Assembly: GCA_018697035.1 (NCBI GenBank) | Contig: JABHSE010000001.1 | Span: 29,653 to 93,652, forward strand | DNA from: an archaeon | GTDB taxonomy: Archaea; Nanobdellota; Nanobdellia; Pacearchaeales; GW2011-AR1 | Reading direction: 5' to 3' | Length of the DNA stretch: 64,000 nt | Part shown: positions 9,708 to 49,125 of the stretch, piece after piece | Numbering within the stretch: position 1 is the stretch's first letter | How the letters are laid out: each line of letters starts with the position of its first letter | Notes under the pieces: generated by a model | Databases searched by the model: none | Told to the model about the DNA's origin: nothing | Seen by the model: the letters and a program-made list of their open reading frames with translations, nothing else | Program-made: the position numbers and the translations under genes

Positions 9708-9800
9708 TTCTAGCGGTTTATACTTCGTTGGACGAACGCTCACGTACTCTTGTACGCTTCGCAACCGTCCGCCTCGTCTAAACCTGCTGTAAATCAGCAT
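9708..9800 (+). repeat. structured intergenic element, family A copy 1
   Basis: tctagcggtttatacttcgtt-ggacg-aacgctca-cgtac-tctt-gtacg-cttcgcaac-cgtcc-gcctcgtctaaacctgctgtaaatcagca. Confidence 0.75.
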
Positions 9801-9860
9801 GGTTTTTATTATATGGTTTAGTATAATAATTATTATAAGTGGCTGTTGTGTTTTTTTATT

Positions 9861-10340
9861 ATGGAGGATGATTTGCGTTTTCAGAAGAGTAATAGTAATT
9901 TTATTGAGAGGTTTTGGGGAGGGTATGTTTCTATTGAGCGAGGTGGCGGATATCAAGTTAAGAGGTTGACTTTGAAGCCTGGTAAGCGGATTAGTTTGCA
10001 GAAGCATTTACATCGGTCGGAGCATTGGGTTGTTGTGTCTGGGGTTGCTAAGATTGTGCTTGGTGGTGAGAGTATTGTTTTGGGAAAAAATGAATCTACT
10101 TATGTTGGTGTTGGGGTTGTTCATCGGTTGGAGAATATGGGGAAGATTGATCTTGAGATTATTGAGGTTCAGATGGGTGAGTATTTGGGTGAGGATGATA
10201 TTGAGAGGTTCGAAGATGATTTTGGACGGGTTGATGGAGAGGACTTGTCTACGGATTATATGGGTGGCCATGGATTTGAGAGTGAGGTTGATTTGGTTAG
10301 TGAGGAGTTTTGTATTGGGGAAGGGTGTGGGGAAGAATGA
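9861..10340 (+). CDS. cupin-domain protein (phosphomannose-isomerase-type cupin)
   Basis: GYQVKRLTLKPGKRISLQKHLHRSEHWVVVSG is a cupin_2 core. An acidic C-terminal tail follows. Confidence 0.5.
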   Translation: MEDDLRFQKSNSNFIERFWGGYVSIERGGGYQVKRLTLKPGKRISLQKHLHRSEHWVVVSGVAKIVLGGESIVLGKNESTYVGVGVVHRLENMGKIDLEIIEVQMGEYLGEDDIERFEDDFGRVDGEDLSTDYMGGHGFESEVDLVSEEFCIGEGCGEE

Positions 10341-11044
10341 AGATTGCGGGATTGCAAAAAGTTTCGACGATTGATTATCCTGGGGAAATTTGTTGTGTGG
10401 TTTTTTTATTTGGTTGTAATTTTAGATGTGGGTTTTGTTATAACCCAGAATTGGTTGTTGGAGATGGTAAGCAGGAATTAGGGTTTTCTCAGGATGAGGT
10501 TTTGGAATTTTTATCTAGACGGATTGGGAAGTTAGATGGGGTTTGTATTTCGGGAGGCGAGCCTTTGATGAGTTTGGATTTTGATTTTGTGAAGAAGGTT
10601 AAGGAGATGGGATTTAAGATTAAAATTGACACTAATGGGAGTTTTCCTGATAAGCTTAAAGATTTGATTGATGAGGGGTTTGTTGATTATATTGCGATGG
10701 ATGTTAAGGGTGCGCGGGATGATTATTTTGAAATTGTGAATGCTGATGTTTGTTTGGAAAAGATTGAAAGGTCTATTAAGATTGTGAATGATTTCGGGGG
10801 TGAGTTCCGGACGACGATTGTTCCAGGGTTACATGATGTGGATAGTGTTTTGGAAATGGGCGAGTGGATGGGGCGTGTTTGTGGGAGGCCACCTGGGAAG
10901 ATTTTTTTGCAGGGGTTTAAGGTTTCTCATGATGGAATGATTGATTCGGCGTTTTTGAAGAAGGTTGATGTTTTGGAGGGGGAGTTGTTGAGGATGAAGG
11001 TGGAGGTTGAGGGGTTGTTTGGAGAAGTTGGGGTTCGGGTGTAG
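10337..11044 (+). CDS. nrdG: anaerobic RNR activating enzyme NrdG (radical SAM)
   Basis: CNFRCGFCYN matches the radical-SAM CxxxCxxC. Its start overlaps the cupin stop (ATGA). Confidence 0.75.
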   Translation: MKIAGLQKVSTIDYPGEICCVVFLFGCNFRCGFCYNPELVVGDGKQELGFSQDEVLEFLSRRIGKLDGVCISGGEPLMSLDFDFVKKVKEMGFKIKIDTNGSFPDKLKDLIDEGFVDYIAMDVKGARDDYFEIVNADVCLEKIERSIKIVNDFGGEFRTTIVPGLHDVDSVLEMGEWMGRVCGRPPGKIFLQGFKVSHDGMIDSAFLKKVDVLEGELLRMKVEVEGLFGEVGVRV

Positions 11045-11045
11045 A

Positions 11046-12278
11046 TTAATTTATTTTTTGTGCTAGTCTTTCTATTGCGTTTATGTAAGCGGCTATCCTT
11101 GTCGATGTTTGATGTTTTGTTTTTTTATTTAAGATTTCTTGTGTTGCATTGAACATTTTTTCTTTTAGTTTTTTGTCAACCTCTTCTGCTGTCCAGGATT
11201 CTTTGTTTATATTTTGATACCATTCGTAATAAGATACGGTTACACCGCCTGCGTTTGCTAGGATGTCTGGGAGGATAAGGATGTTTTTGGATTCTAGGAT
11301 TTTGTCGGCTTCAGGAGTTGTTGGTCCGTTTGCTAATTCTAGGATTATTTTTGCTTTTATTTGTTCTGCGTTTTTTTCTGTGATTTGATTTGCTAGGGCT
11401 GCTGGGACGAGGATGTCGCATTCTAATTCTAATAATTCTTGATTTGTTATTGTAGTTGTGTTAGGAATATCTTGCAGGTTGCCGTTTTGTTTTTTGTGTT
11501 CTAATACTGATTTGATATCTAGTCCTTCTTGGTTATATATTGCGTTTTTAGAATCTGAGATTGCGATGATTTTTGAATTGTCTTCTGATATTAGTTTTGC
11601 GAAGTTGCTTCCTGCGTTGCCGATTCCTTGTATTATTATGGTGGCGTTTTTTAGGGTTGAGATTATCTGGGTTTGTTCGATTGCTTTTTGTAAGACGAAT
11701 TGTCCGCCTCTTGCTGTTGCTGTGTCTCGTCCTAGTGAGCCTCCGTTCTCGATGGATTTTCCTGTGACTACTGCTCTCGCTTCTTCTATTGGTGTGGAAG
11801 TTTGTTTAGAGTATTCGTCTACTATGATGTCCATGATTTTGGCATTGGTGTATACGTCTGGTGCTGGGATGTCTTGTTGTGGTCCGATTACTGGTGTTAT
11901 TTTTTTTATGAAGGCGCGTGTTATGTTTTCTAGTTCTTTGTCTGATAATTCTTTTGGGTTACAGATTACACCACCTTTTCCGCCGCCTAGTGGGAGTCCT
12001 ACTGTCGCTGTTTTTATTGTCATCCAGGTTGCTAGTGCTGAGACTTCGTTTAGGTCGACTTGTGGATGGTATCGGATTCCGCCTTTGTATGGGCCGAGTA
12101 GAGAATTGTGTTGGATTCTGTATCCTGTGAATATCTTTGTTGAATCGTCGTCCATTTTGACTGGGAAGTTGACTTTTGTTTCTCGCTCGGTGTTTAGGAT
12201 TATGTTTAATTTTTCTTGTGAGAGGTTTAATTTTTCTGCGGCTTTTTTTATTATTGTTTTTGCGTTTTCTAATTCCAT
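11046..12278 (-). CDS. gdhA: glutamate dehydrogenase
   Basis: KGGIRYHPQVDLNEVSALATWMTIKTATVGLPLGGGKGG is the Glu/Leu/Phe/Val dehydrogenase signature. 410 aa. Confidence 0.85.
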   Translation of the reverse strand: MELENAKTIIKKAAEKLNLSQEKLNIILNTERETKVNFPVKMDDDSTKIFTGYRIQHNSLLGPYKGGIRYHPQVDLNEVSALATWMTIKTATVGLPLGGGKGGVICNPKELSDKELENITRAFIKKITPVIGPQQDIPAPDVYTNAKIMDIIVDEYSKQTSTPIEEARAVVTGKSIENGGSLGRDTATARGGQFVLQKAIEQTQIISTLKNATIIIQGIGNAGSNFAKLISEDNSKIIAISDSKNAIYNQEGLDIKSVLEHKKQNGNLQDIPNTTTITNQELLELECDILVPAALANQITEKNAEQIKAKIILELANGPTTPEADKILESKNILILPDILANAGGVTVSYYEWYQNINKESWTAEEVDKKLKEKMFNATQEILNKKTKHQTSTRIAAYINAIERLAQKIN

Positions 12279-12469
12279 TTACTTTTTAGGTTGTTTTTGT
12301 TTTTAGTTGTTTGTTATCAGTGTTGACATGCTTACTAATGTAAGTGGCTCTTGGTCCTTCGTTTTATTCCATAAGAAATCACGGCACCTTCGGCACACAT
12401 GATTTCCTATGGGCACTTATAGGATTTTATATAATAATTTTTATATAGTGATTTTTAGTTGAATTTTGT

Positions 12470-13147
12470 ATGGCACCAATAAAACAAAGCGTACCCTTGA
12501 AGGGCAAGAATATTTTGAAGGGGAGGTATCGGCATTTTAAGGGAGGTGAATATGAAGTTTTGTCTGTTGCTTCTAATTGTGATAATCCCGAGCAGGAGCT
12601 TGTTGTTTATCGGGCGCTTTATGGGGAGGGTAAGATTTGGGTTCGGTTGTTGAGTGAGTTTATTGGGTTTAAGGATATTGGTGGGAAGAAGGTTGAGAGA
12701 TTTGAGAAGATTGGTGACGAGGGGAAAGGGGTTTGTGTTAGGGTTAAGAGATTGAGAGAGGATGCGGTTTTGCCGAAGTATGCTCGTGAAGGGGATGCTG
12801 CGATGGATGTTGTTGCTGTTTCTAAGAGAGTTTGTGATAATTATATAGAATATGGGACTGGTTTGGCTTTTGAGGTTCCTGAAGGTCATGTGATGTTGAT
12901 GTTTCCTCGGAGCAGTAATACCAAGAGTGATTTGATTTTGGGGAACTCAGTTGGGGTTTTGGATTCTGGGTATCGTGGGGAGTTGATGATTAGGTTTAAT
13001 GTTATTGGGGACAAGGGGCATTATGAGGTTGGAGATAGGATTGTGCAGATTATGATTTTGCCTTGTCCTGAGGTTGAGTTTGTGGAGAGTGAGGAGTTGT
13101 CGGAGAGTTCAAGGGGAGAGGGGCGGTTTGGGTCGACTGGGAAGTAG
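12470..13147 (+). CDS. dut: dUTP diphosphatase with an N-terminal DUF1653-like domain
   Basis: C-terminal dUTPase motifs: LPKYAREGDAAMD, DSGYRGEL, and a GEGRFGSTG tail. N-terminal GRYRHFKGGEYEVL...ELVVYRALYGEGKIWVR resembles DUF1653. TATA box at about 12440. Confidence 0.7.
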   Translation: MAPIKQSVPLKGKNILKGRYRHFKGGEYEVLSVASNCDNPEQELVVYRALYGEGKIWVRLLSEFIGFKDIGGKKVERFEKIGDEGKGVCVRVKRLREDAVLPKYAREGDAAMDVVAVSKRVCDNYIEYGTGLAFEVPEGHVMLMFPRSSNTKSDLILGNSVGVLDSGYRGELMIRFNVIGDKGHYEVGDRIVQIMILPCPEVEFVESEELSESSRGEGRFGSTGK

Positions 13148-13195
13148 AGGATTTAGTATAGTAGTCTTTATATATTTTTGAGAGTATGTTAGATT

Positions 13196-14230
13196 ATGAT
13201 TATTGGGATTACTGGGACGTTTGGTGCTGGGAAGGGAACGGTTGTTGAGTTTTTGAAAGAGAAGGGTTTTGAGCATTTTTCGGTTAGGGAGTTTTTGATT
13301 GAGGAGATTTCGAAGAGGGGTTTGGAGGTTAGTCAAGGGAATATGGCTTCTGTTGCTAATGACTTGAGGGCTAAGAATGGGGCGAGTTATATTGTTGAGG
13401 AGTTGTATCGGAAGGCTGCGCTTTCAAGGGGGGATGTTGTTATTGAGAGTTTGAGGTGTCCTGGTGAGGTTGAGGTACTTAAGGGGAAAGATGGTTTTGT
13501 TTTGTGGGCGGTGGATGCTGATATTGAGAATAGGTATACTCGGACGATTGAAAGGAGTGATAGTGTTGGGGATGAGAAGGGTTTTTCGTTTCAGCAGTTT
13601 ATGCAAAGGGAACAGGAGCAAATGGGGAATAAGGATCCGACGATGCAGAACTTAGGGGTTTGTATTGAGATGGCGGATGTTGTTTTCCGGAACGATTGGA
13701 CGATTGCGGAATTGAAGGGGAAAGTGGAGAAGGTGCTTGAGAAGAAGATTGATGGGAATGTGAGACCTAGTTGGGATGAGTATTTTATGAAGTTGGCGGC
13801 TTTGGTTGGAGAGAGGTCAACTTGTTTAAGACATAATATTGGTGCTATTATTGTTAAAGATAAGAGGGTTATTACTACTGGTTATAATGGTTCGGCTAAG
13901 GGGATGCCTAATTGTGTTGAGGTTGGGTGCTTGAAGGATGAGTTGGGGATTAAGACTGGAACTGGACATGAGACTTGTCGCGCTGTTCATGCTGAGATGA
14001 ATGCAATTATTCAAGGAGCTTCACATGGTATTTCCGTTGAAGGGACTACTATATATTGTACTCATACTCCGTGCACTCTTTGTGCTAGGATGATTGTGAA
14101 TGCGGGGATAAAGAGGGTAGTTAGTTATCGTGATTATTCTGATGAGGGAGCTAGAAAGTTTTTGGAAAAAGCGAATGTTGTTTTGGATAAGATTGGTAGA
14201 CCTTCTGATAAAATAAGGTTTGTGGATTAA
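13196..14230 (+). CDS. P-loop (d)NMP-kinase-like domain fused to dCMP deaminase
   Basis: N-terminal Walker A IGITGTFGAGKGT. C-terminal deaminase Zn motifs HAEMNAI and PCTLCA. Confidence 0.65.
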   Translation: MIIGITGTFGAGKGTVVEFLKEKGFEHFSVREFLIEEISKRGLEVSQGNMASVANDLRAKNGASYIVEELYRKAALSRGDVVIESLRCPGEVEVLKGKDGFVLWAVDADIENRYTRTIERSDSVGDEKGFSFQQFMQREQEQMGNKDPTMQNLGVCIEMADVVFRNDWTIAELKGKVEKVLEKKIDGNVRPSWDEYFMKLAALVGERSTCLRHNIGAIIVKDKRVITTGYNGSAKGMPNCVEVGCLKDELGIKTGTGHETCRAVHAEMNAIIQGASHGISVEGTTIYCTHTPCTLCARMIVNAGIKRVVSYRDYSDEGARKFLEKANVVLDKIGRPSDKIRFVD

Positions 14231-14280
14231 TCCATACAATACTTAAGTTTTTAAATTAATTATATGATATAGTTTTATTG

Positions 14281-14355
14281 GCTCCGTAGCTCAGCCTGGT
14301 TAGAGCACTGGACTTTTAATCCAGGTGTCGGGGGTTCAAATCCCCTCGGGGCCAT
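14281..14355 (+). tRNA. tRNA-Lys (anticodon TTT)
   Basis: Cloverleaf read by eye. Acceptor ggctccg/cggggcc with one G-U pair, anticodon stem ctgga/tccag, loop cttttaa, T-loop ttcaaat. 75 nt. Confidence 0.8.
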
Positions 14356-14838: not shown

Positions 14839-14896
14839 ATGGCCGAAGTAACATTAAAAATATTTCATACAGACATTTGTTCGCTTGAGGTGAAAA

Positions 14897-22005: not shown

Positions 22006-22006
22006 G

Positions 22007-22792: not shown

Positions 22793-22817
22793 GTTTAATT
22801 TTTGATTCCTACTTGTA

Positions 22818-22905
22818 ATTTCTTGGTAAAAAAATGATTCACGTACGCCTGTACGCTTCACATTTTTTTACGCTGCGAAATTTCTGCGTATAAACCAAAA
22901 TTGTT
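22818..22905 (+). repeat. structured intergenic element, family B copy 1
   Basis: gtaaaaaaatg...[cgtac gcct gtacg]...catttttttac. An 11-bp A/U stem encloses the conserved GTAC hairpin. Confidence 0.7.
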
Positions 22906-22997
22906 AACAAACTTGGTTTTTATCGACGGGAAGTTTCTGTGGTATTAATTTTAAAGGGGCAAAGTTTTATAAATCAATTTTTCACTTAATTGTTACT

Positions 22998-23604: not shown

Positions 23605-24201
23605 ATGGTAGAGATGAAGGTTTTTGGTTTGTTTGACGCTAGTGAAGTTAGAGTTGAGGATCCGGGTTTGAAGAAGGTTGTTAATTTGAATGCTAAGTTG
23701 ATGTTGAAGAGTCATGGTAGGATTAAGTGGGATCCAGCTAGGACTAAGGTTAATGTTGTTGAGAGATTGATTAATTTGTTGCAGGTTCCTGGAAGTCGAG
23801 GGAAGAAGCATAAGATTATTACTGGTTGGATTACGGGGAAGCAGACTCGGTGTACTGGGATTGTTATTGATGCGTTTAAGATAATTGAAGAGAAGACGAA
23901 GGAGAACCCTTTGAAGGTTTTTGTTCGGGCTATTGAGAATGCGGCTCCGAGAGATGAGACTACTACGATTGTTATGGGTGGTTCTAAATATCCTCAAGCA
24001 GTTGATGTTTCGCCACGACGAAGGTTGAATTTGGTTTTGAGGTATTTTGTTAATGGGTCCTATGATAAGGCGTTTAATAAGAAGGCGACGATTGTTGAGG
24101 CTTTGGCTAAAGAGATAATGTTGGCTGCGGATAATTCGGGTGAGTCTTATGCTGTTCGGAAGAGAGTGGATACGGAAAAACAGGCAGACGCGGCTCGGTA
24201 A
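23605..24201 (+). CDS. rps7: ribosomal protein S7
   Basis: 198 aa with the S7 pattern: VNLLQVPGSRGKK, the IVIDAFKIIEEKT region, and a C-terminal AVRKRVDTEK. Confidence 0.85.
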   Translation: MVEMKVFGLFDASEVRVEDPGLKKVVNLNAKLMLKSHGRIKWDPARTKVNVVERLINLLQVPGSRGKKHKIITGWITGKQTRCTGIVIDAFKIIEEKTKENPLKVFVRAIENAAPRDETTTIVMGGSKYPQAVDVSPRRRLNLVLRYFVNGSYDKAFNKKATIVEALAKEIMLAADNSGESYAVRKRVDTEKQADAAR

Positions 24202-24206
24202 TTTTA

Positions 24207-24296
24207 ATTTCTAGCGTTTCATACTTCGTTGCAAGAACACTCACGTACGCCTGTACGCTTCGCAACCTTGCGCCTTGTCTAAATCTGCTATAAATC
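24207..24296 (+). repeat. structured intergenic element, family A copy 2
   Basis: tttctagcgtttcatacttcgtt-gcaag-aacactca-cgtac-gcct-gtacg-cttcgcaac-cttgc-gccttgtctaaatctgctataaatc. Confidence 0.75.
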
Positions 24297-24320
24297 AAAA
24301 TTATTAACTGGAGTGTCATT

Positions 24321-24332
24321 ATTTTTATAAAG
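24321..24332 (+). promoter_or_regulatory. TATA box (tttttataaag) for leaderless ORF at 24353
   Basis: Consensus archaeal TATA about 25 nt upstream of the ATG. The same module follows element A3. Confidence 0.55.
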
Positions 24333-24352
24333 TTGGATTTTGTTCTTTTTTT

Positions 24353-25040: not shown

Positions 25041-27212
25041 ATGGCTGCTGATATGACTGAGAAAGTTAAGGAATTACAGAATGATCCTACACATATTCGG
25101 AATATTGCTATTTGTGCACATATTGATCATGGGAAGACGACGTTTTCTGATAACTTACTTGCTGGTGCTGGGATGATGAGTGAGGCTTTGGCAGGGAAGG
25201 CGCGGACTTTGGATTTTCATGAAGATGAGGCGGAGAGAGGGATTACAATTGATTCAGCTTCGGTTTCTATGGTGCACACTCATGATAAGCAAGATTATTT
25301 GATTAATTTAATTGATACTCCAGGTCATGTTGATTTTGGTGGGGACGTTACTCGGGCTATGAGAGCGGTTGATGGTGCTATTGTTTTATCTTGTGCTAGT
25401 GAGGGGATTATGCCTCAGACTGAGACTGTTCTTCGTCAGGCTTTGAAGGAAAGAGTTAGACCCATTCTTTTTATTAATAAAGTTGATAGATTGATTCGAG
25501 AAGTTAAGCTTACTCCTGAAGAAATGCAGAAGAGGTTTATTGGAATTATTAATTCTGTTAATGAGTTGATTGCCGAGATTGCCGAGCCTGAGTATAAGCA
25601 AAAATGGCAAGTTGGTGTTGCTGATGGGACTGTTGCCTTTGGTAGTGCGTTTCATAATTGGGCATTGAGTATTCCGTATATGCAGAAGCATGGAATTAGT
25701 TTTAAAGAAGTCATTGAGGCTTATGAAGCTGGTGGAGAGGAATATAAGGTTTTAGCGAAGAGAGCTCCGATTCATGAGGTTATTTTGGGTATGGTTGTTG
25801 ATAATCATCCTAATCCTGTGACTGCTCAAGAATACAGAATCCCGAAGATTTGGCATGGTGATTTGGAGAGTGAGGCTGGAAAAGATTTTATGAATTGTAA
25901 TATTAAAGGTGAAGTTGCATTTGTTCCGATTAAGATTGTAATCGATCCTCATGCTGGTGAGGTTGCGGCTGGACGACTTTTTGGTGGGACTATTAAACAG
26001 GGTGATGAATTGTATATGAATATTGCTAAGACTAAGGTTAGGGCTCAGCAGGTTTCTATTTACAAGGGAGCTTCTAGGGTTCAGCTAAGTGAAGTTGTTT
26101 CTGGGAATATTGTTGGTATTGTTGGTTTGAAAGATGTTGTTGTTGGCGAGACTGTTTCTCGAAACCCGATTGAACCGTTTGAAGCTATTAGTCATTTGTT
26201 TGAGCCTGTTGTTACGAAGTCGATTAGTGCTAAGAGAACTGCTGATTTGCCGAAGCTGATTGAAATTTTGAGACAGATTGGGAAAGAGGATCCGAGTTTG
26301 AGGATTGAGATTAATGAAGAGACTGGGGAGTCGTTGATGTCGGGTATGGGAGAATTACATTTAGAGATTATCGAGAATAGAATTAAGAGCGAGAAGGGTC
26401 TTGAGATTGAGATGGGTCCTCCGATTATTGTTTATCGTGAGTCGGTTGCGAAGGTTAGTGATGTTGCTGTTGGGCGAACTCCAAATAAGCATAATGATTT
26501 TTTTGTTACGGTTGAGCCATTAGAGGAAGCGATTATTGAGGCTATTGCTGATGGGACCTTGCCAATCGGACGGATTAAGAAGAAAGATAAGGCGCTTGAT
26601 GAAACTTTGGTTGGTTTGGGGATTAGCCGAGATGAGGCGCAGCAGTATAGGGATATTTACAAGGGAAGTGTTTTTCAAGATAGGACGAAAGGTATTGTTC
26701 AGATTGGTGAGGTTATTGAATTGTTGCTTGATGCTTTTGAGCAGGTTATGGATGCTGGTCCGTTGGCGAGAGAGCCTTGTCATAAGATGAAGGTTTCTAT
26801 TGTTGATATGAAGTTGCATGAGGATGCTATTCATAGAGGCCCTGCACAGGTATACCCGGCTGTTCGTGATGCTATTAAGGAAGGTTTTGCTAAGGCTGTT
26901 CCTGTTATTTATGAGCCAGTTCAGGTTCATCAGATTGAAGCGCCGATTTCTTTTATGGGTGCTGTAACAAGTTTGGTTTCTACGAAGAGAGGGCAGTTGG
27001 TTGATGTCGAACAGGATGAGACTGGCGTGACTGTTCGTGCTGAGTTGCCGGTTTCGGAGATGATTGGTTGGACTAGCGATTTGAGGAGTTCGACTGAAGG
27101 TAGGGGTTCTTCGAGTTTGGTTAGTCAGACTTTTAAGAAGTTGCCTGGTGATATGCAAAGGAAGGTTATTGCGCAGATACGGGAGCGGAAGGGTTTAGCC
27201 GAAAACCAATAA
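25041..27212 (+). CDS. fusA: translation elongation factor 2
   Basis: G domain AHIDHGKTT and DTPGHVDF. 725 aa. Conserved position after S7. Confidence 0.95.
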   Translation: MAADMTEKVKELQNDPTHIRNIAICAHIDHGKTTFSDNLLAGAGMMSEALAGKARTLDFHEDEAERGITIDSASVSMVHTHDKQDYLINLIDTPGHVDFGGDVTRAMRAVDGAIVLSCASEGIMPQTETVLRQALKERVRPILFINKVDRLIREVKLTPEEMQKRFIGIINSVNELIAEIAEPEYKQKWQVGVADGTVAFGSAFHNWALSIPYMQKHGISFKEVIEAYEAGGEEYKVLAKRAPIHEVILGMVVDNHPNPVTAQEYRIPKIWHGDLESEAGKDFMNCNIKGEVAFVPIKIVIDPHAGEVAAGRLFGGTIKQGDELYMNIAKTKVRAQQVSIYKGASRVQLSEVVSGNIVGIVGLKDVVVGETVSRNPIEPFEAISHLFEPVVTKSISAKRTADLPKLIEILRQIGKEDPSLRIEINEETGESLMSGMGELHLEIIENRIKSEKGLEIEMGPPIIVYRESVAKVSDVAVGRTPNKHNDFFVTVEPLEEAIIEAIADGTLPIGRIKKKDKALDETLVGLGISRDEAQQYRDIYKGSVFQDRTKGIVQIGEVIELLLDAFEQVMDAGPLAREPCHKMKVSIVDMKLHEDAIHRGPAQVYPAVRDAIKEGFAKAVPVIYEPVQVHQIEAPISFMGAVTSLVSTKRGQLVDVEQDETGVTVRAELPVSEMIGWTSDLRSSTEGRGSSSLVSQTFKKLPGDMQRKVIAQIRERKGLAENQ

Positions 27213-27218
27213 TTTCAA

Positions 27219-27307
27219 TTTCTAGCGTTTCATACTTCGTTGCAAGAACACTCATGTGCGCTTGCACACTTCGTAATCTTGCGCCTCGTCTAAATCTGCT
27301 ATAAATT
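27219..27307 (+). repeat. structured intergenic element, family A copy 3
   Basis: About 90% identical to A2 over about 130 bp, including the downstream TATA. The inner hairpin changes to tgtgc-gctt-gcaca. Confidence 0.75.
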
Positions 27308-27363
27308 GGAATTGTTAAGTGGAGTGGCATTATTTTTATAAAGTTTAATTTATGAGTCAATTT

Positions 27364-27924: not shown

Positions 27925-29211
27925 ATGGCTAAAGAAAAACCAGGACTAAATGTTGTATTCGTTGGACACGTTGACCAGGGAAAATCTACTTGCGTTGGGC
28001 GAGTATTTTTTGATGGTGGCGCAGTCTCTGAACAAGAGATGAAGAAGTACAAGGAAGAAGCAGAGAAGCATGGTAAGGCTGGATTTGAATTCGCTTATGT
28101 GATGGATAATTTGAAGGAAGAGCGAGAGAGAGGAGTTACAATTAACTTGTCTTATAAGAAGCTTATTACTAAGAATTTTGAAGTTACTATAATCGATGCT
28201 CCGGGGCATAAGGATTTTGTTAAGAACATGATCACTGGTGCTTCGCAAGCGGATGCGGCTTTTTTGGTTGTTGGATGTGAAGACGGAGTTCAACCTCAGA
28301 CTAAAGAACACGTTTGGTTACTAAGGACTATGGGAGTTTCCCAGTTAGCGGTTCTTATTAACAAAATGGATGTTGTTGATTACGATCAGGCTAAGTTTGA
28401 TAAAGCTGCTGCTGATGTTAAAGAAGTTATCAAGCAAGCTGGTTATAACCCCGATACTACACCTTTCATTCCGGGCTCTGCTCTAATGGGAGAAGGTGTT
28501 TCACTTAAATCTGACAAGTTAGCATGGTACAAAGGACCAACTGTTTTAGAACAGATTGATAAGTTCGATGCTCCATCTAAACCAACAAACTTACCAATGC
28601 GTATGCCAATCCAGGATGTCTACGAGATTACTGGTATTGGAACTGTTCCTGTAGGAAAGATTGAAACAGGTATTATGAAAATCGGACAAAAGGTTATTGT
28701 ATTACCAGGACGATCTGGAAGCGGTATTCCAGGTGAGGTTCGAAGTATTGAAGCTCATCATGAGCAGTTAAAGGAAGGCGAAGCTGGAGACAATGTCGGT
28801 ATCAACATTCGAGGTGTTGGTAAGAAAGACATGGCTCGAGGCGACGTTATCTGTGAAGCTGCTAACCCGGCACCTATAGTTGAAGAATTTGAGGCACAAG
28901 TTGCTATCATTAATCATCCAACTGTTATTGCTAAAGGTTATACACCTGTATTCCATGTTCACACAGCTCAAGTTCCATGTCAATTCGTGGAATTAAAGGC
29001 TAAGTTGGATCCTGCTACTGGACAAGTAAGTGAAGAAAACCCTGACTTCTTGAAGAACGGAGATGTTGCTATTGTTAAGATCAAACCTGTTGGAAACCTA
29101 GTAATGGAATCCGCAGATAAGAATCCTAATATGGCACGGTTCGCAATTCGAGATGCTGGAGTTACAGTTGCTGCTGGCGTTTGTAAGTCTTTGACTGAAA
29201 AGAAATTATAG
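27925..29211 (+). CDS. tuf: translation elongation factor 1-alpha
   Basis: GHVDQGKST and DAPGHKDF. 428 aa. Confidence 0.95.
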
Positions 29212-29226
29212 TTTCTAGCGTGAATT

Positions 29227-29320
29227 TCTTGGTAAAAAAATCCTTACGTACCCACGTACGCCACGGATTTTTTTACACTTCGAACTTCACTGCTATAAAT
29301 TAAATTTCTTTCAGCTTTTT
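29227..29320 (+). repeat. structured intergenic element, family B copy 2
   Basis: gtttctagcgtgaatttcttg-gtaaaaaaatcc-ttacgtac-ccac-gtacg-cca-cggatttttttac. Confidence 0.7.
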
Positions 29321-30730: not shown

Positions 30731-31891
30731 ATGGCAAAAATAAGTCCAACGTCGATAAAGTATCAGATTGTTGCTAAGTTTAACGCTGACGGGCCGTTTC
30801 AAAAACCTGATGTAATCGGGGCTTTGTTCGGGCAGACAGAAGGTTTACTTGGTGCTGATATGGAATTACGAGAGCTGCAGAAAGAAGGAAAGATTGGTAG
30901 GATCGAGGTAGATTTGGTCACCGAAGGTGGTAAGACTACTGGAGAGATTACTATTCCGACTGCACTTGATAAGACTGAGACTACAATTATTGCGGCTTCT
31001 CTTGAGACAATTGATAAGATTGGTCCAACTGATGCTACGATTAAGATTGCAGATATCTCGGATGTTCGAGGCGGAAAGAGAGATTATATTATGGAGAGGG
31101 CGAAAGCTCTTCTTGCTGGTATATCTAATGAGGGAATGGATTCTACTGAGATGGAAACTGAACTTCGTGAATCGACTCGAATTTCTAAGGCTGTTACATA
31201 CGGAGAAGAAGGTCTTGCTGCTGGTCCAAATATTGATGACGAGAAAGAATTGATTGTTGTCGAGGGTCGAGCTGATGTTGTGAATATGTTGAAGCATGGT
31301 ATCAAGAATGTTATTGGTATGCAGGGAACTCGGTTTCCGAAAACTATTGCTACTTTATCCGAGACAAAGGAAATTACTTTGTTTGTTGATGGAGATAGAG
31401 GCGGTAAGTTGATTGCTCAAAATGTTTGTGACAATGCGAAGGTTGTATATATTGCGACTGCACCTGACGGAAAGGAAGTTGAAGAGCTAGCTGGTAAAGA
31501 GCTTTTGATCGCTTTGCGAAAGAAGGTTCCTGCTGCGGTTTTTTTGAAGAATGGTAGTGGAGCGCTTGCGACTGGTTCGCGACGAGCTACTGCATCTGTT
31601 GAAGGAATTGTTAGGCGAGAGTTGACTAATGACGATATTTCGAAGCTTCGAGAACTTAGTTCTGATATTAAGGGCAAGAATGTCTTGGTTGTGAATGATA
31701 GTTTAGAAGTTGTGAAAAACGTTTCAGCTTTGAGGCTCGGTTCGATTGATGCGAAAGATGCGTTTGTTTTGATGGTTGCGGAAGCTACTGGTGTTGTTGT
31801 TCAGGCTGCTGAGAGATTTCAATCTAAGGCGGTTGCGGCGAAGACATTTGAGAAGACTATTGTTACTGAGATTCAACTTGTATCACTTTAG
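30731..31891 (+). CDS. dnaG: archaeal DnaG-like primase (TOPRIM)
   Basis: N-terminus IKYQIVAKFNADGPFQKPDVIGALFGQTEGLLGADMELRELQKEGKIGRIEV matches the archaeal DnaG signature. A TOPRIM EGRADVVNM...DGDRGG follows. Confidence 0.75.
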   Translation: MAKISPTSIKYQIVAKFNADGPFQKPDVIGALFGQTEGLLGADMELRELQKEGKIGRIEVDLVTEGGKTTGEITIPTALDKTETTIIAASLETIDKIGPTDATIKIADISDVRGGKRDYIMERAKALLAGISNEGMDSTEMETELRESTRISKAVTYGEEGLAAGPNIDDEKELIVVEGRADVVNMLKHGIKNVIGMQGTRFPKTIATLSETKEITLFVDGDRGGKLIAQNVCDNAKVVYIATAPDGKEVEELAGKELLIALRKKVPAAVFLKNGSGALATGSRRATASVEGIVRRELTNDDISKLRELSSDIKGKNVLVVNDSLEVVKNVSALRLGSIDAKDAFVLMVAEATGVVVQAAERFQSKAVAAKTFEKTIVTEIQLVSL

Positions 31892-31909
31892 TAAAATCGA
31901 TTTTATTGG

Positions 31910-31995
31910 AAAATTTCTTGGTAAAAGAAATTCTCGCGTACCATATGTACGCCACGAATTTTTTTACGCTTCGAAATTTCCTCACTGAAATCAAT
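31910..31995 (+). repeat. structured intergenic element, family B copy 3
   Basis: gtaaaagaaattc-tcgcgtac-catat-gtacgcc-ac-gaatttttttac. Confidence 0.7.
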
Positions 31996-32049
31996 TTTGT
32001 TTGGGTCCGTTTTTGGGCTCTTTTTATTTTTTTATTTTTTTGGTTTTGA

Positions 32050-44943: not shown

Positions 44944-44995
44944 TTGAAACTAGTTTCATCGAAGCGATTATATAGGATTTTGTTTTGTGCTTTAT

Positions 44996-46417
44996 ATGAA
45001 GAAAATTTTTAGGATTGAGGGAATGACCTGTAATTCGTGTGCTAATCTTATTGAGTATAAGTTGAAAGATAAGGTGAAGCATGTGTCTGCTAGTTATTCT
45101 AAGGGAGAAGTCGAGGTTGAATTTGATGAAAATAAGATTAGTGAGAAAAAGATTATTAGCTTAATTGAGGAGGGTGGGGAGTTTAGTATTGTTGAAGAAG
45201 GTAGGACTGAAGATAAGGTTGGCTTGTGGTTTATGATTGGATCTTTTCTTGTTTTGGCGTATTTTGCTTATGGTTGGATTAGTGACTTGGGTTTTTCAAT
45301 TCCTGGTGTTGGAGAGCAGTCTGGGTTTATTATTTTGTTTTTTGTTGGCATTTTAACTGGCTTTCATTGTGTTTCGATGTGTGGAGTTTTTGTTGTTTCC
45401 TATACTACCAGTAATGCGAAGGTTGGACATAAGGGGTTTATGCAACATTTTGTTTATGGTGGATCTAAGGTTTTTTCTTATGCTGTTATTGGTGGTATTT
45501 TTGGTTTGATTGGTGGTATTTTTTCTTTTAGTATTGGGCTTCGTGCCGGTATTGCTATTTTTGCTGGGTTGTTTATGGTGTCTTATGCCTTGAGTATGCT
45601 GGGTGTTGGATTTTTTAGAAAGTTTTCTTTTAACCCTAAGTTTTTGACTAAGTGGGCCGCTAAGACTACTCATGGCGCAAAGGGATTTTATACGGCCCCT
45701 TTTATGACTGGTATACTTAGTGGTTTCTTTATCGCCTGTGGGCCGCTTCAAGCGCTTTATCTTTATGCTGCGGGGACTGGGAGTTTTTGGACTGGTTTCT
45801 TTTCTTTGGGAGCTTTTAGTCTTGGTACTTTGCCAGTATTGATTGGATTTGGTAGTTTGACTTCAGTTATTAGTAAGAAGGCTACTAAGAGGATTTTGAA
45901 AATTGCGGCGGTTCTTGTTTTGATATTAGGACTTATTATGATTAATAGAGGGCTTGTGGTTTTGGGAAGTGATTATAGTTTTGAGGCGATTGCTTCTAAT
46001 ATCGGCGGAGTTAGTGCTGGAGCTACTGCTGCTGGAGCGGCTGTTTTGGAAGGAGATTTTCAGGTGATTAATATGGAGGTTACGCGATATGGGTGGACGC
46101 CAGATACATTTACTTTAAAGAAGGGGGTTCCTGTGAAATGGAATATCGATGTTAAGGAATTGACTGGGTGTAATAATGAGATAATTGTTCGGGATTATGA
46201 TATTGATGCTAAGTTGAAGAAGGGGATGAATGTTGTGGAATTTTTGCCTGATGAGACGGGGACTGTTAGATGGAGTTGTTGGATGGGAATGATTCCTGGG
46301 ACGTTTATTGTGACTGATGATGGTTTGGCTAGTGATACTCAACTAAAGGAGGTTGCTGCGTCTGCTCCTGCTGGTGGTGGCTGTGGGTGTGGAGGAGGTT
46401 CTACTTGTGGCGCTTGA
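44996..46417 (+). CDS. copper-handling membrane protein with N-terminal HMA domain, Cys-containing polytopic core, C-terminal cupredoxin-like domain and CG-rich tail
   Basis: N-terminal HMA GMTCNSCAN. TM core with conserved HCVSMCG and ACGPLQ. C-terminal GTVRWSCWMGMIPGTFIV (COG4633-like plastocyanin fold). Tail GGGCGCGGGSTCGA. Confidence 0.55.
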   Translation: MKKIFRIEGMTCNSCANLIEYKLKDKVKHVSASYSKGEVEVEFDENKISEKKIISLIEEGGEFSIVEEGRTEDKVGLWFMIGSFLVLAYFAYGWISDLGFSIPGVGEQSGFIILFFVGILTGFHCVSMCGVFVVSYTTSNAKVGHKGFMQHFVYGGSKVFSYAVIGGIFGLIGGIFSFSIGLRAGIAIFAGLFMVSYALSMLGVGFFRKFSFNPKFLTKWAAKTTHGAKGFYTAPFMTGILSGFFIACGPLQALYLYAAGTGSFWTGFFSLGAFSLGTLPVLIGFGSLTSVISKKATKRILKIAAVLVLILGLIMINRGLVVLGSDYSFEAIASNIGGVSAGATAAGAAVLEGDFQVINMEVTRYGWTPDTFTLKKGVPVKWNIDVKELTGCNNEIIVRDYDIDAKLKKGMNVVEFLPDETGTVRWSCWMGMIPGTFIVTDDGLASDTQLKEVAASAPAGGGCGCGGGSTCGA

Positions 46418-46418
46418 G

Positions 46419-46583
46419 ATGAAAGAGGATTTGGATTGTCCGATTTGTGAGAAGCAAGTTTTTTCTGGTGCTGGTGAGGGGTGTAAAATGTGCGGAATGA
46501 CTATGGATGAGGGTGATGAACTTTTTTGCTGTGAAATATGTGAGGATAAGTGGGGGTCTATTAATTCGAGGGTTGAAGATTAG
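46419..46583 (+). CDS. small Cys-rich metal-binding protein (TRASH/YHS-like)
   Basis: Cys motifs CPICEKQ...CKMCGMT...CCEICEDKWG. Its start overlaps the upstream stop. Confidence 0.4.
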   Translation: MKEDLDCPICEKQVFSGAGEGCKMCGMTMDEGDELFCCEICEDKWGSINSRVED

Positions 46584-46600
46584 TTAATTTTATATAGTTT

Positions 46601-46616
46601 GTTCACTATTGTTAAC
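46601..46616 (+). promoter_or_regulatory. 16-bp motif GTTCACTATTGTTAAC immediately downstream of a TATA box (site 1 of 3)
   Basis: The same 16-mer recurs at 50143-50158. An inverted-half-site version, GTTAACTATTGTGAAC, is at 6809-6824. Confidence 0.45.
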
Positions 46617-46639
46617 TAATTAAATTTGGAGTATATTAT

Positions 46640-46861
46640 ATGGATAAAGTAAAATTAATGTTTGGAATATTCGTTTCTATAATGTTAGCTTTGACTTTTG
46701 TTTCGGCTGATTCTGGTGACTATGATCATGGAATGGGCGGAATGATGTCCGGTAGCTATGGTTTTGGTGGGATGGTTTTTGGCTGGATTACTGGAATATT
46801 GTTTGTTGCTGTTTTAGTTTTGTTGATTGTTTGGTTAACTAAACAGATACAGAAGAAATAA
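46640..46861 (+). CDS. small membrane peptide with Met/Gly-rich motif (putative Cu-binding)
   Basis: Signal/TM segment, then [19 protein letters not shown] (Met-rich, as in CusF, PcoC and CopB), then a second TM helix. Confidence 0.45.
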
Positions 46862-46886
46862 TGGAGCTCAAAGCATAAATAAAATA

Positions 46887-49049
46887 ATGGCAAAAAAAAT
46901 AAAGTTGGACATTGAAGGGATGCATTGTGCTTCGTGCTCGAAGATAGTGACTTCTGAATTGGAGAAGATTGGCGCTAGGAATGTTAGTGTTAACCCGGTT
47001 AGTGGGAAGTCTTTTGCAGAAGTTGATGACAGTGTTTCTTTTGAGCAGATTGGAAAAGCTGTGAAAGATGCAGGGTTTAAGCTGATTGGATTCAGTGAGG
47101 GCTCTGCTTCTGGTGCCCCTTCTTCTTTTAAACCTAGTAATGAAATTAATACTTGGAAGACTAAGTTGATTAGTGTTTGGGGGCTGACCTCTCTTATTGT
47201 AGCTATTATGTATTCTGAATATTTAATTGGAGCACCTCTTGTTCCAATTAAATGGATGATTCCTTTAATGCTGGTTTTGAGTTTTCCAATTATTTTTATT
47301 TTTGGTTTTTCTACTATTAAATCTGGAGCTAGGGGTTTTGTTCGATTGCAGTTTACTATGGATTCTTTGATTGCACTTGGAACTGTCGTTGCTTATTCGA
47401 CTGGTATACTTAGTTATTTTATTGATGTGACGAGTTTTGCCGGTGTGTCAGGAATGATTATGACTATTTTTATTACGGGAAAATTTATTGAGGCTAAGGC
47501 TAAGGGTCGTGCGACTTCGGAAATTCGGAAGTTGTTGGAGCTTGGGGCGAAGAAGGCTTTGGTTTTACGAGGGAAAAAGGAGATTGAGATTGATATTAGT
47601 GAGGTTAAAATTGGGGATGTTATGATTGTGAAGCCCGGAGAGAAGATTCCGACTGATGGCGTTGTTGTCAAGGGTGAGAGTGCTGTTGATGAGTCGATGA
47701 TTACTGGGGAGAGTTTGGCGGTTGAGAAGATGAGGGGGGGAAAGGTCATTGGAGCGACTATTAATCAAGATGGAGTACTTTATATTAAGGCAACTAAGAT
47801 TGGGAGTGATACTTTTTTGTCACATATTGTGAAGTTGGTCGAAGAGGCGCAGGGGACAAAGGTTCCGATTCAGAAGTTGGCGGACAAGGTGACGGGTGTT
47901 TTTGTTCCGGTTATTTTAGTATTAGCTCTTTTGACTTTTTTGGGATGGTATCTTATCTTTGACGTTTCCTTAAGTATTGCTCTTAGTAATGCTATTGCTG
48001 TTTTGGTTATTGCGTGTCCATGCGCCTTGGGGTTGGCAGTTCCTATTTCTTTGATGGTTGGTTCTGGAATGGGTGCGAAGCGTGGCATACTTATTAGAAA
48101 AGGTGAGGCTATTCAAACCATGAAGGAAGTTAAGACGGTTGTTTTTGATAAGACTGGGACGATTACAAAGGGTGAGCCTGAGGTTGTTGAAGTTTCTACA
48201 AAAAATGAAAAAAAGTTGTTTGAAATTGCTGGAAGTTTGGAGAAATTAAGTGAGCATCCTTTGGCTAGGGCTGTTGTTAAGAAGGCTGGACTGAAGAAGT
48301 ATTTGAGCGTTAAGAAATTTAAGGTTATTCGAGGGAAGGGGCTTGAGGGAGTTATTGGAGGGAAAAAATATATTGTTGGCAACGAGGCCTTGATGAAGGA
48401 CAAAAGAATTGCCCTTGGGAGTTATGCTAAGGTGGTTAAGGGTTTTGCTGAGAAGGGATTTAGTGTTATGGTTGTTGTTGAAAATAAAGTAGTTCTCGGG
48501 GCTATGGGAATTGCGGATGCGGTTAAGGAAGATTCTAGAGAGGCTGTTGCTCGGTTGAATCGTGGTGGGTTTAGGACGGTTATGATTACTGGGGATAATG
48601 AGGTTACGGCTAGAGCTATTGCTCGAGAGGTTGGAATTAAGGAGGTTATTGCTGGGGTTATGCCAGGGGATAAAGCGAAAGAAGTTATTAGGTTGCAAAA
48701 GAGTGGTATGGTCGCGTTTGTTGGAGACGGGGTTAATGATGCTGTTGCTTTGAAGGAAGCGAATGTGGGGATTGCTATGGGGGGAGGTAGTGATATTGCG
48801 ATTGAGGCTGGGGACATAGTTCTTGCTAAGGGGAATTTAACTGGGGTTGTTGAGGCGATAAAGTTATCTAATGCGACATTTAGAAAGATTAAGCAAAATT
48901 TGTTTTGGGCGTTTTTTTATAATGTTGTTGCGATTCCCTTGGCTGTTGCGGGTTTTTTGAATCCTGTTGTTGCAGAGATTGCTATGGCGCTTTCTTCTAT
49001 TACGGTAGTCACTAATGCTAATTTGCTTAGGTTTTCTTTTAATTCTTAG
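46887..49049 (+). CDS. copA: copper-translocating P1B-type ATPase
   Basis: N-terminal [19 protein letters not shown] (ACPCALG). [17 protein letters not shown]. Confidence 0.9.
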
Positions 49050-49125
49050 TGACTTATACTTCGTTAAAAGAACGCTCGTGTACGCTTGTACATGTCGCAA
49101 CCTTTTGCCTTGTCTAAGCCTACTA
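49046..49125 (+). repeat. structured intergenic element, family A copy 4
   Basis: tacttcgtt-aaaag-aacgctcg-tgtac-gctt-gtaca-tgtcgcaac-ctttt-gccttgtctaagcc. Both stems covary relative to A1-A3. Confidence 0.7.

Follow-up and report, generated by a model that had tools for sequence, protein, structure and literature searches.

What are the four hairpin-forming repeats that stand behind genes in this archaeal DNA, and does their fold serve the host or a mobile element? An earlier note on the 64,000-nucleotide stretch analyzed here (the window) had described four copies of a ~90-nt skeleton just after the stop codons of plus-strand genes and had proposed a lineage-specific terminator or another kind of 3'-end element. 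We give slightly better than even credence to a different answer, in which a family of non-coding foldback repeats that is related to the Correia elements and spans two domains has the four elements as its archaeal members, with the copies fixed at gene ends in this archaeon.

Each of the four copies was located where it had been reported, and together they make up family A in the window:

9701-9799, plus strand: copy A1, covariance model score 66.5 bits, box 1 (TACTTCGTT) at 9721-9729 and box 2 (GCCTCGTCTAA) at 9771-9781
24200-24302, plus strand: copy A2, covariance model score 63.7 bits, box 1 at 24222-24230 and box 2 at 24272-24282
27211-27313, plus strand: copy A3, covariance model score 60.9 bits, box 1 at 27233-27241 and box 2 at 27283-27293
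49037-49135, plus strand: copy A4, covariance model score 74.5 bits, box 1 at 49057-49065 and box 2 at 49107-49117

All four carry both boxes exactly (TACTTCGTT and GCCTYGTCTAA, at a spacing of 41 nt), and their stems change together; the stem pairs quoted for them earlier (ggacg/cgtcc, gcaag/cttgc and aaaag/ctttt, plus the inner hairpins) were correct. When the covariance model was run over the window without filters, only these copies were found, at 61 to 75 bits, and the next-best match reached 15.7 bits (E = 1.1). Likewise, each half-pattern matched exactly four times, with chance expectations of 0.05 and 0.02, the 5' half showing no mismatch in any copy and the 3' half showing two in A3 and none in the other three. 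Contrary to the claim that tcgcaacc stays fixed, A3 has tcgtaatc in its inner loop where the other copies have tcgcaacc. RNAalifold kept 25 pairs over the four copies, and at 11 of these both sides change. The skeleton is real, but the whole element is longer than had been thought, at ~99 to 103 nt, because the outer arms pair as well, e.g., TTTCTAGCG with CTGCTATAAA; in A1 these arms are TGCTGATTTCTAGCGGTTTA and ACCTGCTGTAAATCAGCA.

The copies do lie at the 3' ends of plus-strand genes, and the description of them as standing just after stop codons needs amending. The start of A2 falls inside the TAA stop (24199-24201) of ribosomal protein S7, that of A3 falls inside the TAA stop (27210-27212) of EF-2 (both assigned by Pfam), and the TAG stop (49047-49049) of copA, a P-type ATPase with an HMA domain, lies within the 5' arm of A4. 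Upstream of A1 there is indeed an open reading frame (ORF) with the NrdD glycyl-radical motif, but it is one of 40 codons (9575-9695, stop at 9693-9695), and the 727-aa NrdD ORF, which ends at 9588, is not the one directly before the element.

The resemblance among the copies might be put down to chance, or to local duplication without any family behind it. A2 and A3 are 3 kb apart and have flanking sequence in common, in segments that are identical at ~31 of 38 bases (counted by eye) and of which the first includes the TATA-like box of the gene that follows, a gene apparently without a leader:

24303-24340, plus strand: 38-nt segment after A2 (ttattaactggagtgtcattatttttataaagtt...), with a matching segment after A3
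27314-27351, plus strand: 38-nt promoter-containing segment after A3, matching 24303-24340

This explanation is refuted by hundreds of independent copies with compensatory changes, and we give it practically no credence. At least 119 loci with the same boxes and fold were found in species-representative genomes of DPANN archaea and of Bacteroidota, Chlorobiota, Clostridia, Campylobacterota, Gammaproteobacteria and Endomicrobiia, about six bacterial phyla in all, and 47 further loci in metagenomes belong to the archaeal subtype. The element is thus not lineage-specific, since many bacterial phyla have the same core. It is important to consider that these loci were gathered with a pattern fixing both boxes, which overstates box conservation; the covariance model recovers variants with one to several box changes.

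The conserved fold with covarying stems, as first proposed from the window, received overwhelming confirmation from 105 and 55 further copies. Among the 105 copies, 90.9% of the 1,995 base-pair cells pair, against 67.5% in shuffles, and with the partners slid, at most 48% do. The corresponding values for the 55 distinct archaeal copies are 93.3% and 78.8% in shuffles, with compensatory (both-sided) change at 31 of 40 pairs. The family fold consists of an outer stem, an asymmetric internal loop made of the two boxes, and two to three covarying helices. Read on the strand opposite to the plus strand of the window, the boxes are TTAGAC-RAG-GC and AAC-GAA-GTA.

As for a known identity, the proposed Rfam search matched no family: Rfam 15 gave no match at gathering scores and nothing credible at E values up to 1-10 with short stretches, and one weak match, to HPnc0260 (29 bits, E = 3.6), overlaps a tRNA. 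A scan of viral contigs for the family pattern returned no match, and a literature search for the box sequences in either orientation gave nothing but primers and the Oxford Nanopore adapter, in which TACTTCGTT happens to occur.

The bacterial members are more informative. In them the core is the interior of 140- to 190-bp elements with sharp ends, whose terminal inverted repeats differ from genome to genome and whose target duplications are 3-bp TNA or TA. The T-N-A (or TA) flanks are identical in ~16 of 21 complete bacterial copies, including one TGA/TGA, in alignments read by eye. One genome has the same terminal repeat around a different core as well. The bacterial core is the cargo of MITE-type elements with genome-specific ends. 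The elements have terminal inverted repeats, no coding capacity, lengths below 300 bp and several dispersed copies, as MITEs do, and the bacterial ones resemble generic MITEs (ERIC/IRU, RUP and those derived from IS5 or IS630) in their inverted repeats, TNA/TA duplications, lack of coding sequence and intergenic position. However, ordinary MITEs conserve their IS-derived ends, whereas in this family the ends vary between genomes and it is the structured interior that phyla and domains have in common. No parent IS was found in the listed loci, where terminal-repeat searches returned other MITEs and no IS. When the ORFs up to 3 kb from the 119 listed loci were clustered all against all, only syntenic housekeeping genes and no recurring protein emerged. 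Between co-directional genes, 10 bacterial copies are in sense and 21 in antisense orientation. In element orientation, GC skew is positive at 58 bacterial loci and negative at 46, which is uninformative on replication; at the archaeal loci, gene strand and GC skew are confounded.

By sequence comparison, the closest described relative is the Correia repeat-enclosed element of Neisseria. No prokaryotic MITE was described before the Correia elements, whose mobilizing mechanism was never determined and whose directional core has "...TAC..." at one end and "...GAC-AAG-G..." at the other (PMC2649163). They are transcribed together with adjacent genes, and RNase III cuts their hairpin RNA (PMC10969869). 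Like the present family, they (CREE/NEMIS) are small (about 70 to 160 bp) non-coding foldback repeats with many copies and a directional core. One relative, locus L101, has Correia tips (TATAGTGGA, 9 of 9 bases of the published repeats, PMC5039591), a box plus first stem resembling a gonococcal 20-mer, and an inner hairpin in which 22 of 23 bases are those of a meningococcal Correia-region primer, the link to Neisseria being drawn from this single intermediate, from 20- to 30-nt strings printed in papers and from one junction. Additionally, at locus L123 a Neisseria-type box 1 (TACGGCGTT) lies inside a Lewinellaceae MITE with a TTA duplication.

The differences from Correia are also clear. The 26-bp Correia terminal repeat (TATAGTGGATTAA...) is absent from the window copies, whose arms read (T)AATTTTAATT[C/T]...TAG.G. 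The Correia boxes are TACGGCGTT and GCCTTGTCCTGA, and those of the window are TACTTCGTT and GCCTYGTCTAA; in the window pair, TTATAC-TTC-G / TTAGAC-RAG-G, the GAC-AAG-GC part is the same as in Neisseria, and the central triplet of the other box is TTC rather than GGC. Furthermore, the window copies are archaeal, stand in one orientation at gene 3' ends and have no clear TA duplication. The term "Correia-like" was not found in our literature search. The earlier note knew of no archaeal element that matches; the core belongs to a known kind of mobile repeat, MITE-like in bacteria and linked to Correia. A match to a known repeat with an established DNA-level function had been named as grounds for giving up the RNA-level proposal; what we found comes near to this, a known kind of mobile repeat, but one whose core has no established DNA-level function.

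Other known systems fit less well. REPs are extragenic palindromes, often at gene 3' ends, with short unpaired tags conserved across phyla, and those of the CGTC class have no known transposase (PMC3733652). REP/REPIN (RAYT) units are 20 to 40 bp long with the tag at one end, while the conserved part of the present family is the internal loop of a 100-nt hairpin; we rejected this identity because the sequence as read has no GTAG or CGTC tag (defined in PMC3733652) and the bacterial members have target duplications. There is no cloverleaf or repeat-spacer array, as tRNA, tmRNA or CRISPR would require. By reading of the sequence, ribozyme cores (hammerhead, hairpin and twister), the K-turn, sarcin-ricin, bulge-helix-bulge and archaeal SECIS motifs, SRP RNA, a 5S rRNA fragment, retrons, IS200/IS605 ends, omega-RNA and the Neisseria DNA uptake sequence were all misfits. 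Box 1 has the 7-mer ACTTCGT in common with the loxP arm, a lead and not a test. Rickettsia palindromic elements are tolerated beside or inside essential genes, as this family is, and they insert into genes in frame and are confined to one lineage. Integron attC sites likewise owe their definition to structure: their stems covary, their boxes pair on either side of an unpaired spacer, they directly follow ORFs, and a single strand is active. An attC identity was rejected: the sequences of the core sites differ, the box order is the reverse of RYYYAAC ... GTTRRRY, neither an integrase nor a cassette array accompanies the copies, and the neighbors are housekeeping genes.

In archaea, the context is remarkably uniform. 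Every evaluable copy is co-oriented with its upstream gene and abuts or overlaps the stop codon of that gene. In 41 of 52 distinct copies, a sense ORF of at least 80 codons ends within 31 nt before box 1; most of the remainder are cut by contig ends, and an apparent exception, locus L144, reads into the element. The upstream genes belong to 21 families, among which S7 (8 loci), EF-2/EF-1α (5 loci) and aIF-1A (4 loci) recur across species. A2 is flanked by TA on both sides, and in the sequences read, most archaeal copies are flanked by TA on the left side and by TG on the right side. Neither a target duplication nor a partner transposase could be demonstrated for the archaeal copies, and Pfam assignments of the window neighbors include no integrase or transposase. 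A sister family, B, is colinear with family A and has three copies in the window:

22793-22915, plus strand: copy B1, preceded by a 141-aa ORF that weakly matches a KH domain
29209-29305, plus strand: copy B2, beginning at the TAG stop of EF-1α
31889-31998, plus strand: copy B3, beginning at the TAG stop of a 386-aa Toprim-domain ORF

The boxes of B1 are AATTTCTTGGT and ACGCTGCGAA, and a 20-mer over its apical hairpin (CACGTACGCCTGTACGCTTC) is the same in A2; the outer arms of B2, TTTCTAGCG and CTGCTATAAAT, are those of A2 and A3. The seven elements in 64 kb correspond to roughly one gene end in ten.

These observations bear on a second explanation, in which the elements work for the host at 3' ends: the transcribed plus-strand hairpin, with its T-runs, would end transcription, protect the 3' end against exonucleases or insulate the next promoter, and descent from a mobile repeat would be history only. 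The strictly sense orientation at abutted stop codons and the recurrence of the same sites across species agree with it, as do the compact genome with its seven elements, each followed by T-runs of at least five and a TATA-like box. So do the plus-strand folds of three of the four copies, which beat shuffles (z of -3.5 to -6.9; A2, z = -1.1), and the cleavage of Correia transcripts by RNase III mentioned above (PMC10969869). However, a plain hairpin function needs no fixed orientation, and the bacterial copies have none of this kind. The U-tract is also apart from the hairpin: in all seven window elements, the T-runs start 4 to 41 nt past the element, so not within the repeat itself, and they overlap the TATA-like box that comes next. 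An archaeal oligo-T terminator would call for such a run of at least five T on the non-template strand behind the gene. Classical termination by a G+C-rich hairpin directly followed by a U-tract does not fit, with an A-rich 3' arm, no adjacent U-tract and a terminator scan that catches only sub-hairpins.

The strand on which the fold is best formed also speaks against the host 3'-end explanation. The antisense strand gives the better fold in each of the seven elements of the window and in 98 of the 105 members of the family, with a mean gap of 7.7 kcal/mol in the family. Family G·U pairs number 127 on one strand and 27 on the other; in the archaeal set the count is 196 antisense against 46 plus, or 65 against 42 once four fixed positions are left aside. 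The sense strand of the elements is C-rich (skew of -0.11 to -0.30) against a window skew of +0.41, and the loops of the better-folding strand are purine-rich. The apical loops of 146 copies include 8 UNCG on the plus strand and no GNRA on the antisense strand. Such a preference is odd for a 3'-UTR role. We consider a host 3'-end element rather unlikely as the primary identity; the copies may have a role at 3' ends or in stability in this archaeon. Pairing is kept, as the earlier note said, and may point to an RNA-level function; stability, G·U pairs and composition favor the antisense strand. Covariation in a repeat is not by itself RNA function, and here it favors the strand antisense to the genes.

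A third explanation takes up this asymmetry, supposing that the core acts as a recognition site in the manner of attC or REP, either as folded single-stranded DNA or within an antisense RNA, with a recombinase or an HUH-type enzyme recognizing the mismatched boxes on just one strand and so imposing polarity. The family-wide imbalance in G·U pairs, stability and loop composition suits it, as do the two paired boxes around an unpaired spacer followed by a variable terminal structure, and the independence of the core from the terminal repeats. The position of the copies right after ORFs, with stop codons in the 5' arm, also recalls the attC sites of gene cassettes. Nevertheless, the box order differs from attC, the tags of REPs are lacking (PMC3733652), and no recombinase or transposase recurs nearby among the loci listed. 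The flanking genes are core housekeeping genes rather than cassettes, and an antisense RNA would have neither promoter nor terminator, none being visible on the antisense strand of the elements. We regard this explanation as doubtful, well below the preceding one.

Returning to the cross-domain family of foldback repeats, a trans-acting enzyme that acts on the arms would spread its members, and selection on a single-stranded folded form, which most of the evidence places on the antisense strand, would maintain the core. In this DPANN-like archaeon, from a streamlined and uncultured lineage, copies of A and B appear to have been fixed, all in the same orientation, where transcription units end, and the order at each copy would be upstream stop codon, element, T-runs and next promoter. 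A copy that starts in or at the upstream stop codon and is followed by T-runs and a promoter is therefore probably transcribed, at least partly, with the upstream gene, whose 3' end it may shape or insulate. The purely mobile side of this account is weakened by the occupation of the same archaeal sites in several species with pairing kept, which fits a host function better than selfish insertion.

A further idea, which we hold tentatively and consider possible rather than probable, is that the core TTAGAC-RAG-GC / AAC-GAA-GTA is an undescribed functional module of single-stranded RNA or DNA, read by a factor common to bacteria and archaea, carried as cargo by MITEs with unrelated ends (Correia included) and domesticated in DPANN as a polar gene-end element. 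If this is true, the partner would explain both the movement of Correia-type elements and the marks at transcription-unit ends in streamlined archaea. With hundreds of genomes in two domains, the family lends itself to a search for the missing Correia enzyme by phylogenetic profiling, and it marks the core rather than the terminal repeats as what selection has acted on over the long term. For the archaea themselves, repeats of ~100 nt held in one orientation at the same sites across DPANN species suggest a role in organizing transcription units.

The four copies of family A (A1 to A4) claimed in the earlier note were recovered at the places given for them, all on the plus strand. The 5' half-pattern ATACTTCGTTNNNNGAACRCTC matched the window four times with no mismatch (chance expectation, 0.05), and the 3' half-pattern TCGCAACCNNNNGCCTYGTCTAA matched four times (chance expectation, 0.02), with two mismatches in A3. 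The spacing between box 1 and box 2, the conserved segments flanking the stem-hairpin core, was constant at 41 nt in all four. Furthermore, an unfiltered window search with a covariance model returned solely A1 to A4, at 61 to 75 bits, the next match having 15.7 bits (E=1.1). The claim that the stems change together was borne out by RNAalifold on the four copies, which gave 25 pairs, both partners having changed in 11. The hairpin also stood, within a unit larger than the approximately 90 nt first described: the outer arms pair too, giving an imperfect hairpin of 99 to 103 nt per unit. The segment 'tcgcaacc', described as fixed, is not kept by A3. A colinear sister family, B, brings the total in the 64-kb window to seven, without exception on the plus strand.

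Elements of families A and B (window coordinates)
9701-9799, plus strand, family A copy A1
22793-22915, plus strand, family B copy, after an ORF with a weak KH-domain match
24200-24302, plus strand, family A copy A2
27211-27313, plus strand, family A copy A3
29209-29305, plus strand, family B copy, after EF-1α
31889-31998, plus strand, family B copy, after a Toprim ORF
49037-49135, plus strand, family A copy A4

The family B boxes are AATTTCTTGGT and AC-R-CTTCGAA, with an A7/T7 stem. The outer arms of one family B copy are those of A2 and A3, and another copy carries a 20-mer over the apical hairpin identical to that of A2; the family also occurs in three other archaeal loci (L028, L137 and L146). 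The window itself, with a G+C content of about 0.39, carries genes for archaeal RNA polymerase, S12, S7, EF-2 and EF-1α and is nearly identical to marine metagenome contigs, one of 546 kb; related copies come from genomes with the labels Nanoarchaeota, Woesearchaeota or plain 'archaeon', and from these labels a DPANN-type archaeon is the probable source. The GC skew of these foldback elements on the plus strand (-0.11 to -0.30) is opposite to that of the window (+0.41 overall, +0.17 to +0.58 per 4-kb windows). The lowest window values coincide with minus-strand gene regions, and AT skew is negative across the whole window.

The position at the 3' ends of plus-strand genes holds for all window copies. 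All seven elements start at or a few bases from the upstream stop codon or enclose it, as in A4, whose 5' arm encloses the copA stop codon, and all are followed by a T-run of at least 5 at 4 to 41 nt downstream and then by a TATA-like box. A1, described earlier as following nrdD, in fact lies behind a separate 40-codon ORF bearing the NrdD glycyl-radical motif. The anaerobic ribonucleotide reductase gene (7405-9695) seems split, as the 727-aa NrdD ORF ends at 9588 and is overlapped in another frame by the 40-codon ORF (9575-9695), which encodes the motif (..SRVVGYLRP..); the gene may be truly split or may contain a frameshift, whether programmed or not. Between nrdD and a radical-SAM activase-like gene (10310-11044) come A1 and a cupin gene. 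Downstream of A2 and A3, 38 nt are nearly identical (24303-24340 and 27314-27351) and include the TATA-like box of the next gene; therefore, the repeated unit there is the element plus a promoter. Two related loci, L139 and L137, have the order S7-element-EF-2-element-EF-1α lacking the additional small ORFs of the window (65, 106 and 152 aa, no Pfam match), and L139 retains a remnant of the 3' end of the 152-aa ORF.

The same context recurs in other archaeal genomes. A sense ORF of at least 80 codons, ending within the 31 nt ahead of box 1, precedes 41 of the 52 distinct archaeal copies, the remainder being mostly cut by contig ends. The commonest distances from stop to box 1 are 23, 17, 24 and 10 nt, and the stop codons are TAA (29), TAG (7) and TGA (5). 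Many of the upstream ORFs terminate at stops provided by the element's own 5' arm; L144, an apparent exception, has an ORF reading into the element. The upstream genes fall into 21 families, including S7 (eight loci), EF-2/EF-1α (five), aIF-1A (four), S2, RadA, RPA, MutL, a glycosylase, secretion ATPases, CopA and NrdD. The earlier proposal of a terminator is not supported in its classical form: the U-tract lies apart from the hairpin, whose 3' arm is rich in A. The hairpin acting together with the downstream T-runs, or a protective 3' hairpin, would suit the position at gene ends and the T-runs behind all seven window elements; we consider this possible but less likely than not.

The element had also been taken as lineage specific, and this view did not survive the search of other genomes. 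A scan of one genome per species with the pattern TACTTCGTT-N39-43-GCCTYGTCTAA matched at least 119 loci, in which box invariance follows from the pattern having fixed both boxes; the covariance model also finds copies with one to several box changes. The same boxes and plan occur in bacteria of several phyla as well as in DPANN archaea. Among the matches listed are Bacteroidota (Saprospiraceae, Lewinellaceae, Cytophagales, Bacteroidales and Chitinophagales, with the isolates Labilibacter and Brumimicrobium), Chlorobiota, Clostridia (Oscillospiraceae, Syntrophomonas and Hominicoprocola), Campylobacterota (Sulfurimonas), Gammaproteobacteria (Corallincola, Rheinheimera and Entomomonas), Endomicrobiia and about ten DPANN genomes. 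At least one match, L107, lacks the fold and looks like chance; all other loci examined follow a common plan of T-rich arm, box 1, stem, hairpin, stem, box 2 and A-rich arm. A metagenome scan for the archaeal subtype gave 47 loci, and the box pattern had no match in the viral contigs scanned. No Rfam family matched, even at E values up to 10 on short stretches. Most literature matches to box 1 stem from the presence of TACTTCGTT within an Oxford Nanopore adapter, which we treated as coincidence; the 7-mer ACTTCGT of box 1 is presumably also shared with the loxP arm by coincidence.

Covariation persists in the larger alignments, mixed and archaeal, both of which pair above shuffles. Among 105 distinct aligned copies, standard pairs fill 90.9% of 1,995 pair cells, against 67.5% in shuffles (0 of 500 reaching the observed value) and 35 to 48% with slid partners, and both sides have changed in 489 cells versus 175 expected. 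For the archaeal 40-pair structure, the values are 93.3% against 78.8% in shuffles and at most 45% in slid controls, with changes on both sides at 31 of the 40 pairs.

Which strand acts is a separate question. The reverse-complement strand, antisense to the genes in the window, folds more stably in 98 of the 105 members (by a mean of 7.7 kcal/mol) and likewise in each of the seven elements of the window. The variable helices of the mixed set have 127 G·U pairs on the antisense strand versus 27 on the plus strand; the archaeal set has 196 versus 46, or 65 versus 42 without four nearly fixed positions, which could equally be a conserved AAC/AAC loop on the plus strand. The conserved loops are purine rich on the antisense strand (RAG/GAA and GAA/GA). 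In the sequences read, this strand showed neither a promoter conserved at a constant distance nor a run of T behind the hairpin. Where the neighbours are tRNA, rRNA or ribosomal-protein genes, the transcribed strand must be the plus strand. Of the bacterial copies between codirectional genes, 10 are sense and 21 antisense, without the archaeal type of polarity. The strict archaeal orientation is not derivable from stop codons or T-runs, because both orientations would provide them.

In some genomes, minimal units consisting of the outer stem and core only lie within stable-RNA operons. Rheinheimera sp. 1928-s (L097, 1-1021) has two diverged copies in the rRNA operon spacer that precedes the 23S rRNA gene, one immediately behind tRNA-Ile and the other immediately behind tRNA-Ala; a Sulfurimonas genome (L109) has a copy between tRNA-Val and tRNA-Glu, and L042 has one between tRNA-Phe and tmRNA. 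At all three loci, the element begins immediately past the tRNA CCA end. Four Campylobacterota species (L022, L042, L092 and L115) apparently share one site, with common flanks and upstream genes, and their stems differ by compensatory changes. A weak Rfam match in L097 (114-238, minus strand), to the Helicobacter antisense RNA HPnc0260, scored 29.4 bits (E=3.6), short of the gathering score; it covers the first element together with the 3' half of tRNA-Ile and has no counterpart in Sulfurimonas.

Within a genome, bacterial copies can be aligned to sharply defined ends, namely GGAACGAGTAAAAAATAAC...GTTATTTTTTACTCGTTCC in a Cytophagales genome and GAGCATGTTCAAAATTCC...GGAAATTTGAACATGCTC in a Saprospiraceae genome, and other bacterial genomes have yet different termini. 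The three flanking bases are direct repeats of the form T-N-A (TTA, TAA and, once, TGA), or TA in one subfamily, and the flanks are identical in about 16 of 21 complete copies, as counted from the alignments. These sharp ends and flank duplications therefore define the bacterial members as MITE-type elements of 140 to 190 bp. Unusually, the terminal repeats vary by genome around an internal core that is common to several phyla, and within the Cytophagales genome the terminal repeat is found again at the ends of a MITE whose core is unrelated. Thus, with the same ends around different cores and different ends around the same core, the core behaves as a separable cargo module. The second MITE family of Cytophagales bin9 (L019, 3598-3790; L064, 3000-3300; L068, 2347-2560) has the repeat GGAACGAGTAAAAAATAAC, a TTA/TAA duplication and an unrelated hairpin, with a tandem or nested pair in L064. 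Among the loci examined, neither a recurrent protein family within 3 kb of the element nor an autonomous IS with matching ends was seen.

The comparison with the Correia elements of Neisseria was made with separate short strings and not with an entire element, and the junction between two verified strings is presumed. The box and first stem (GAC-GAG-GCGACGAGCC) of L101, a 107-bp element of an uncultured proteobacterium ending in TA|TAGTGAAC...GTCCACTA|TA, resemble the gonococcal 20-mer TCAGGACAAGGCGACGAAGC, which we take to be a Correia string; in the papers searched, it occurs solely in a 1987 gonococcal paper on 'a repetitive sequence'. At its tips, L101 is identical over 9 of 9 bases to published Correia repeats (TATAGTGGATT...; PMC5039591), and 22 of the 23 bases of a meningococcal primer, ATCGGTTCCGTACTATTTGTACTGTCTGCG, recur in its inner hairpin (PMC4189776). 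Additionally, TACGGCGTT, the Neisseria box 1, and GCCTTGCCTGAA, close to the Neisseria box 2, occur in a MITE of Lewinellaceae flanked by a TTA duplication. By these likenesses, the element is related to Correia elements through intermediates, and the phrase 'Correia-like' is in none of the papers searched. The earlier note had named a match to a known repeat with an established DNA-level function as evidence against its reading; the match found here comes near to this, being to a kind of mobile repeat. The mechanism mobilizing Correia elements is stated to be undetermined (PMC2649163); their transcripts form hairpins cut by RNase III, and the elements can also act as a source of promoters and of an IHF site (PMC10969869).

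The data demonstrate a structured repeat with compensatory evolution that is a mobile MITE in bacteria. Transposition would be carried out by a trans-acting enzyme working on the arms, and the core may be kept because a folded single strand is needed for mobilization or for an RNA-level effect. An attC-like or REP-like single-stranded DNA site, which would accord with the stable folding of one strand, is a weaker rival than the 3'-end roles considered above. The window copies would then be old, fixed insertions, now at the ends of transcription units. The finding is thus real, with stronger support than a reading of one stretch could know, and its framing has changed: family A belongs, as its archaeal branch, to a widespread and undescribed superfamily, the one described member type of which is the Correia MITE.
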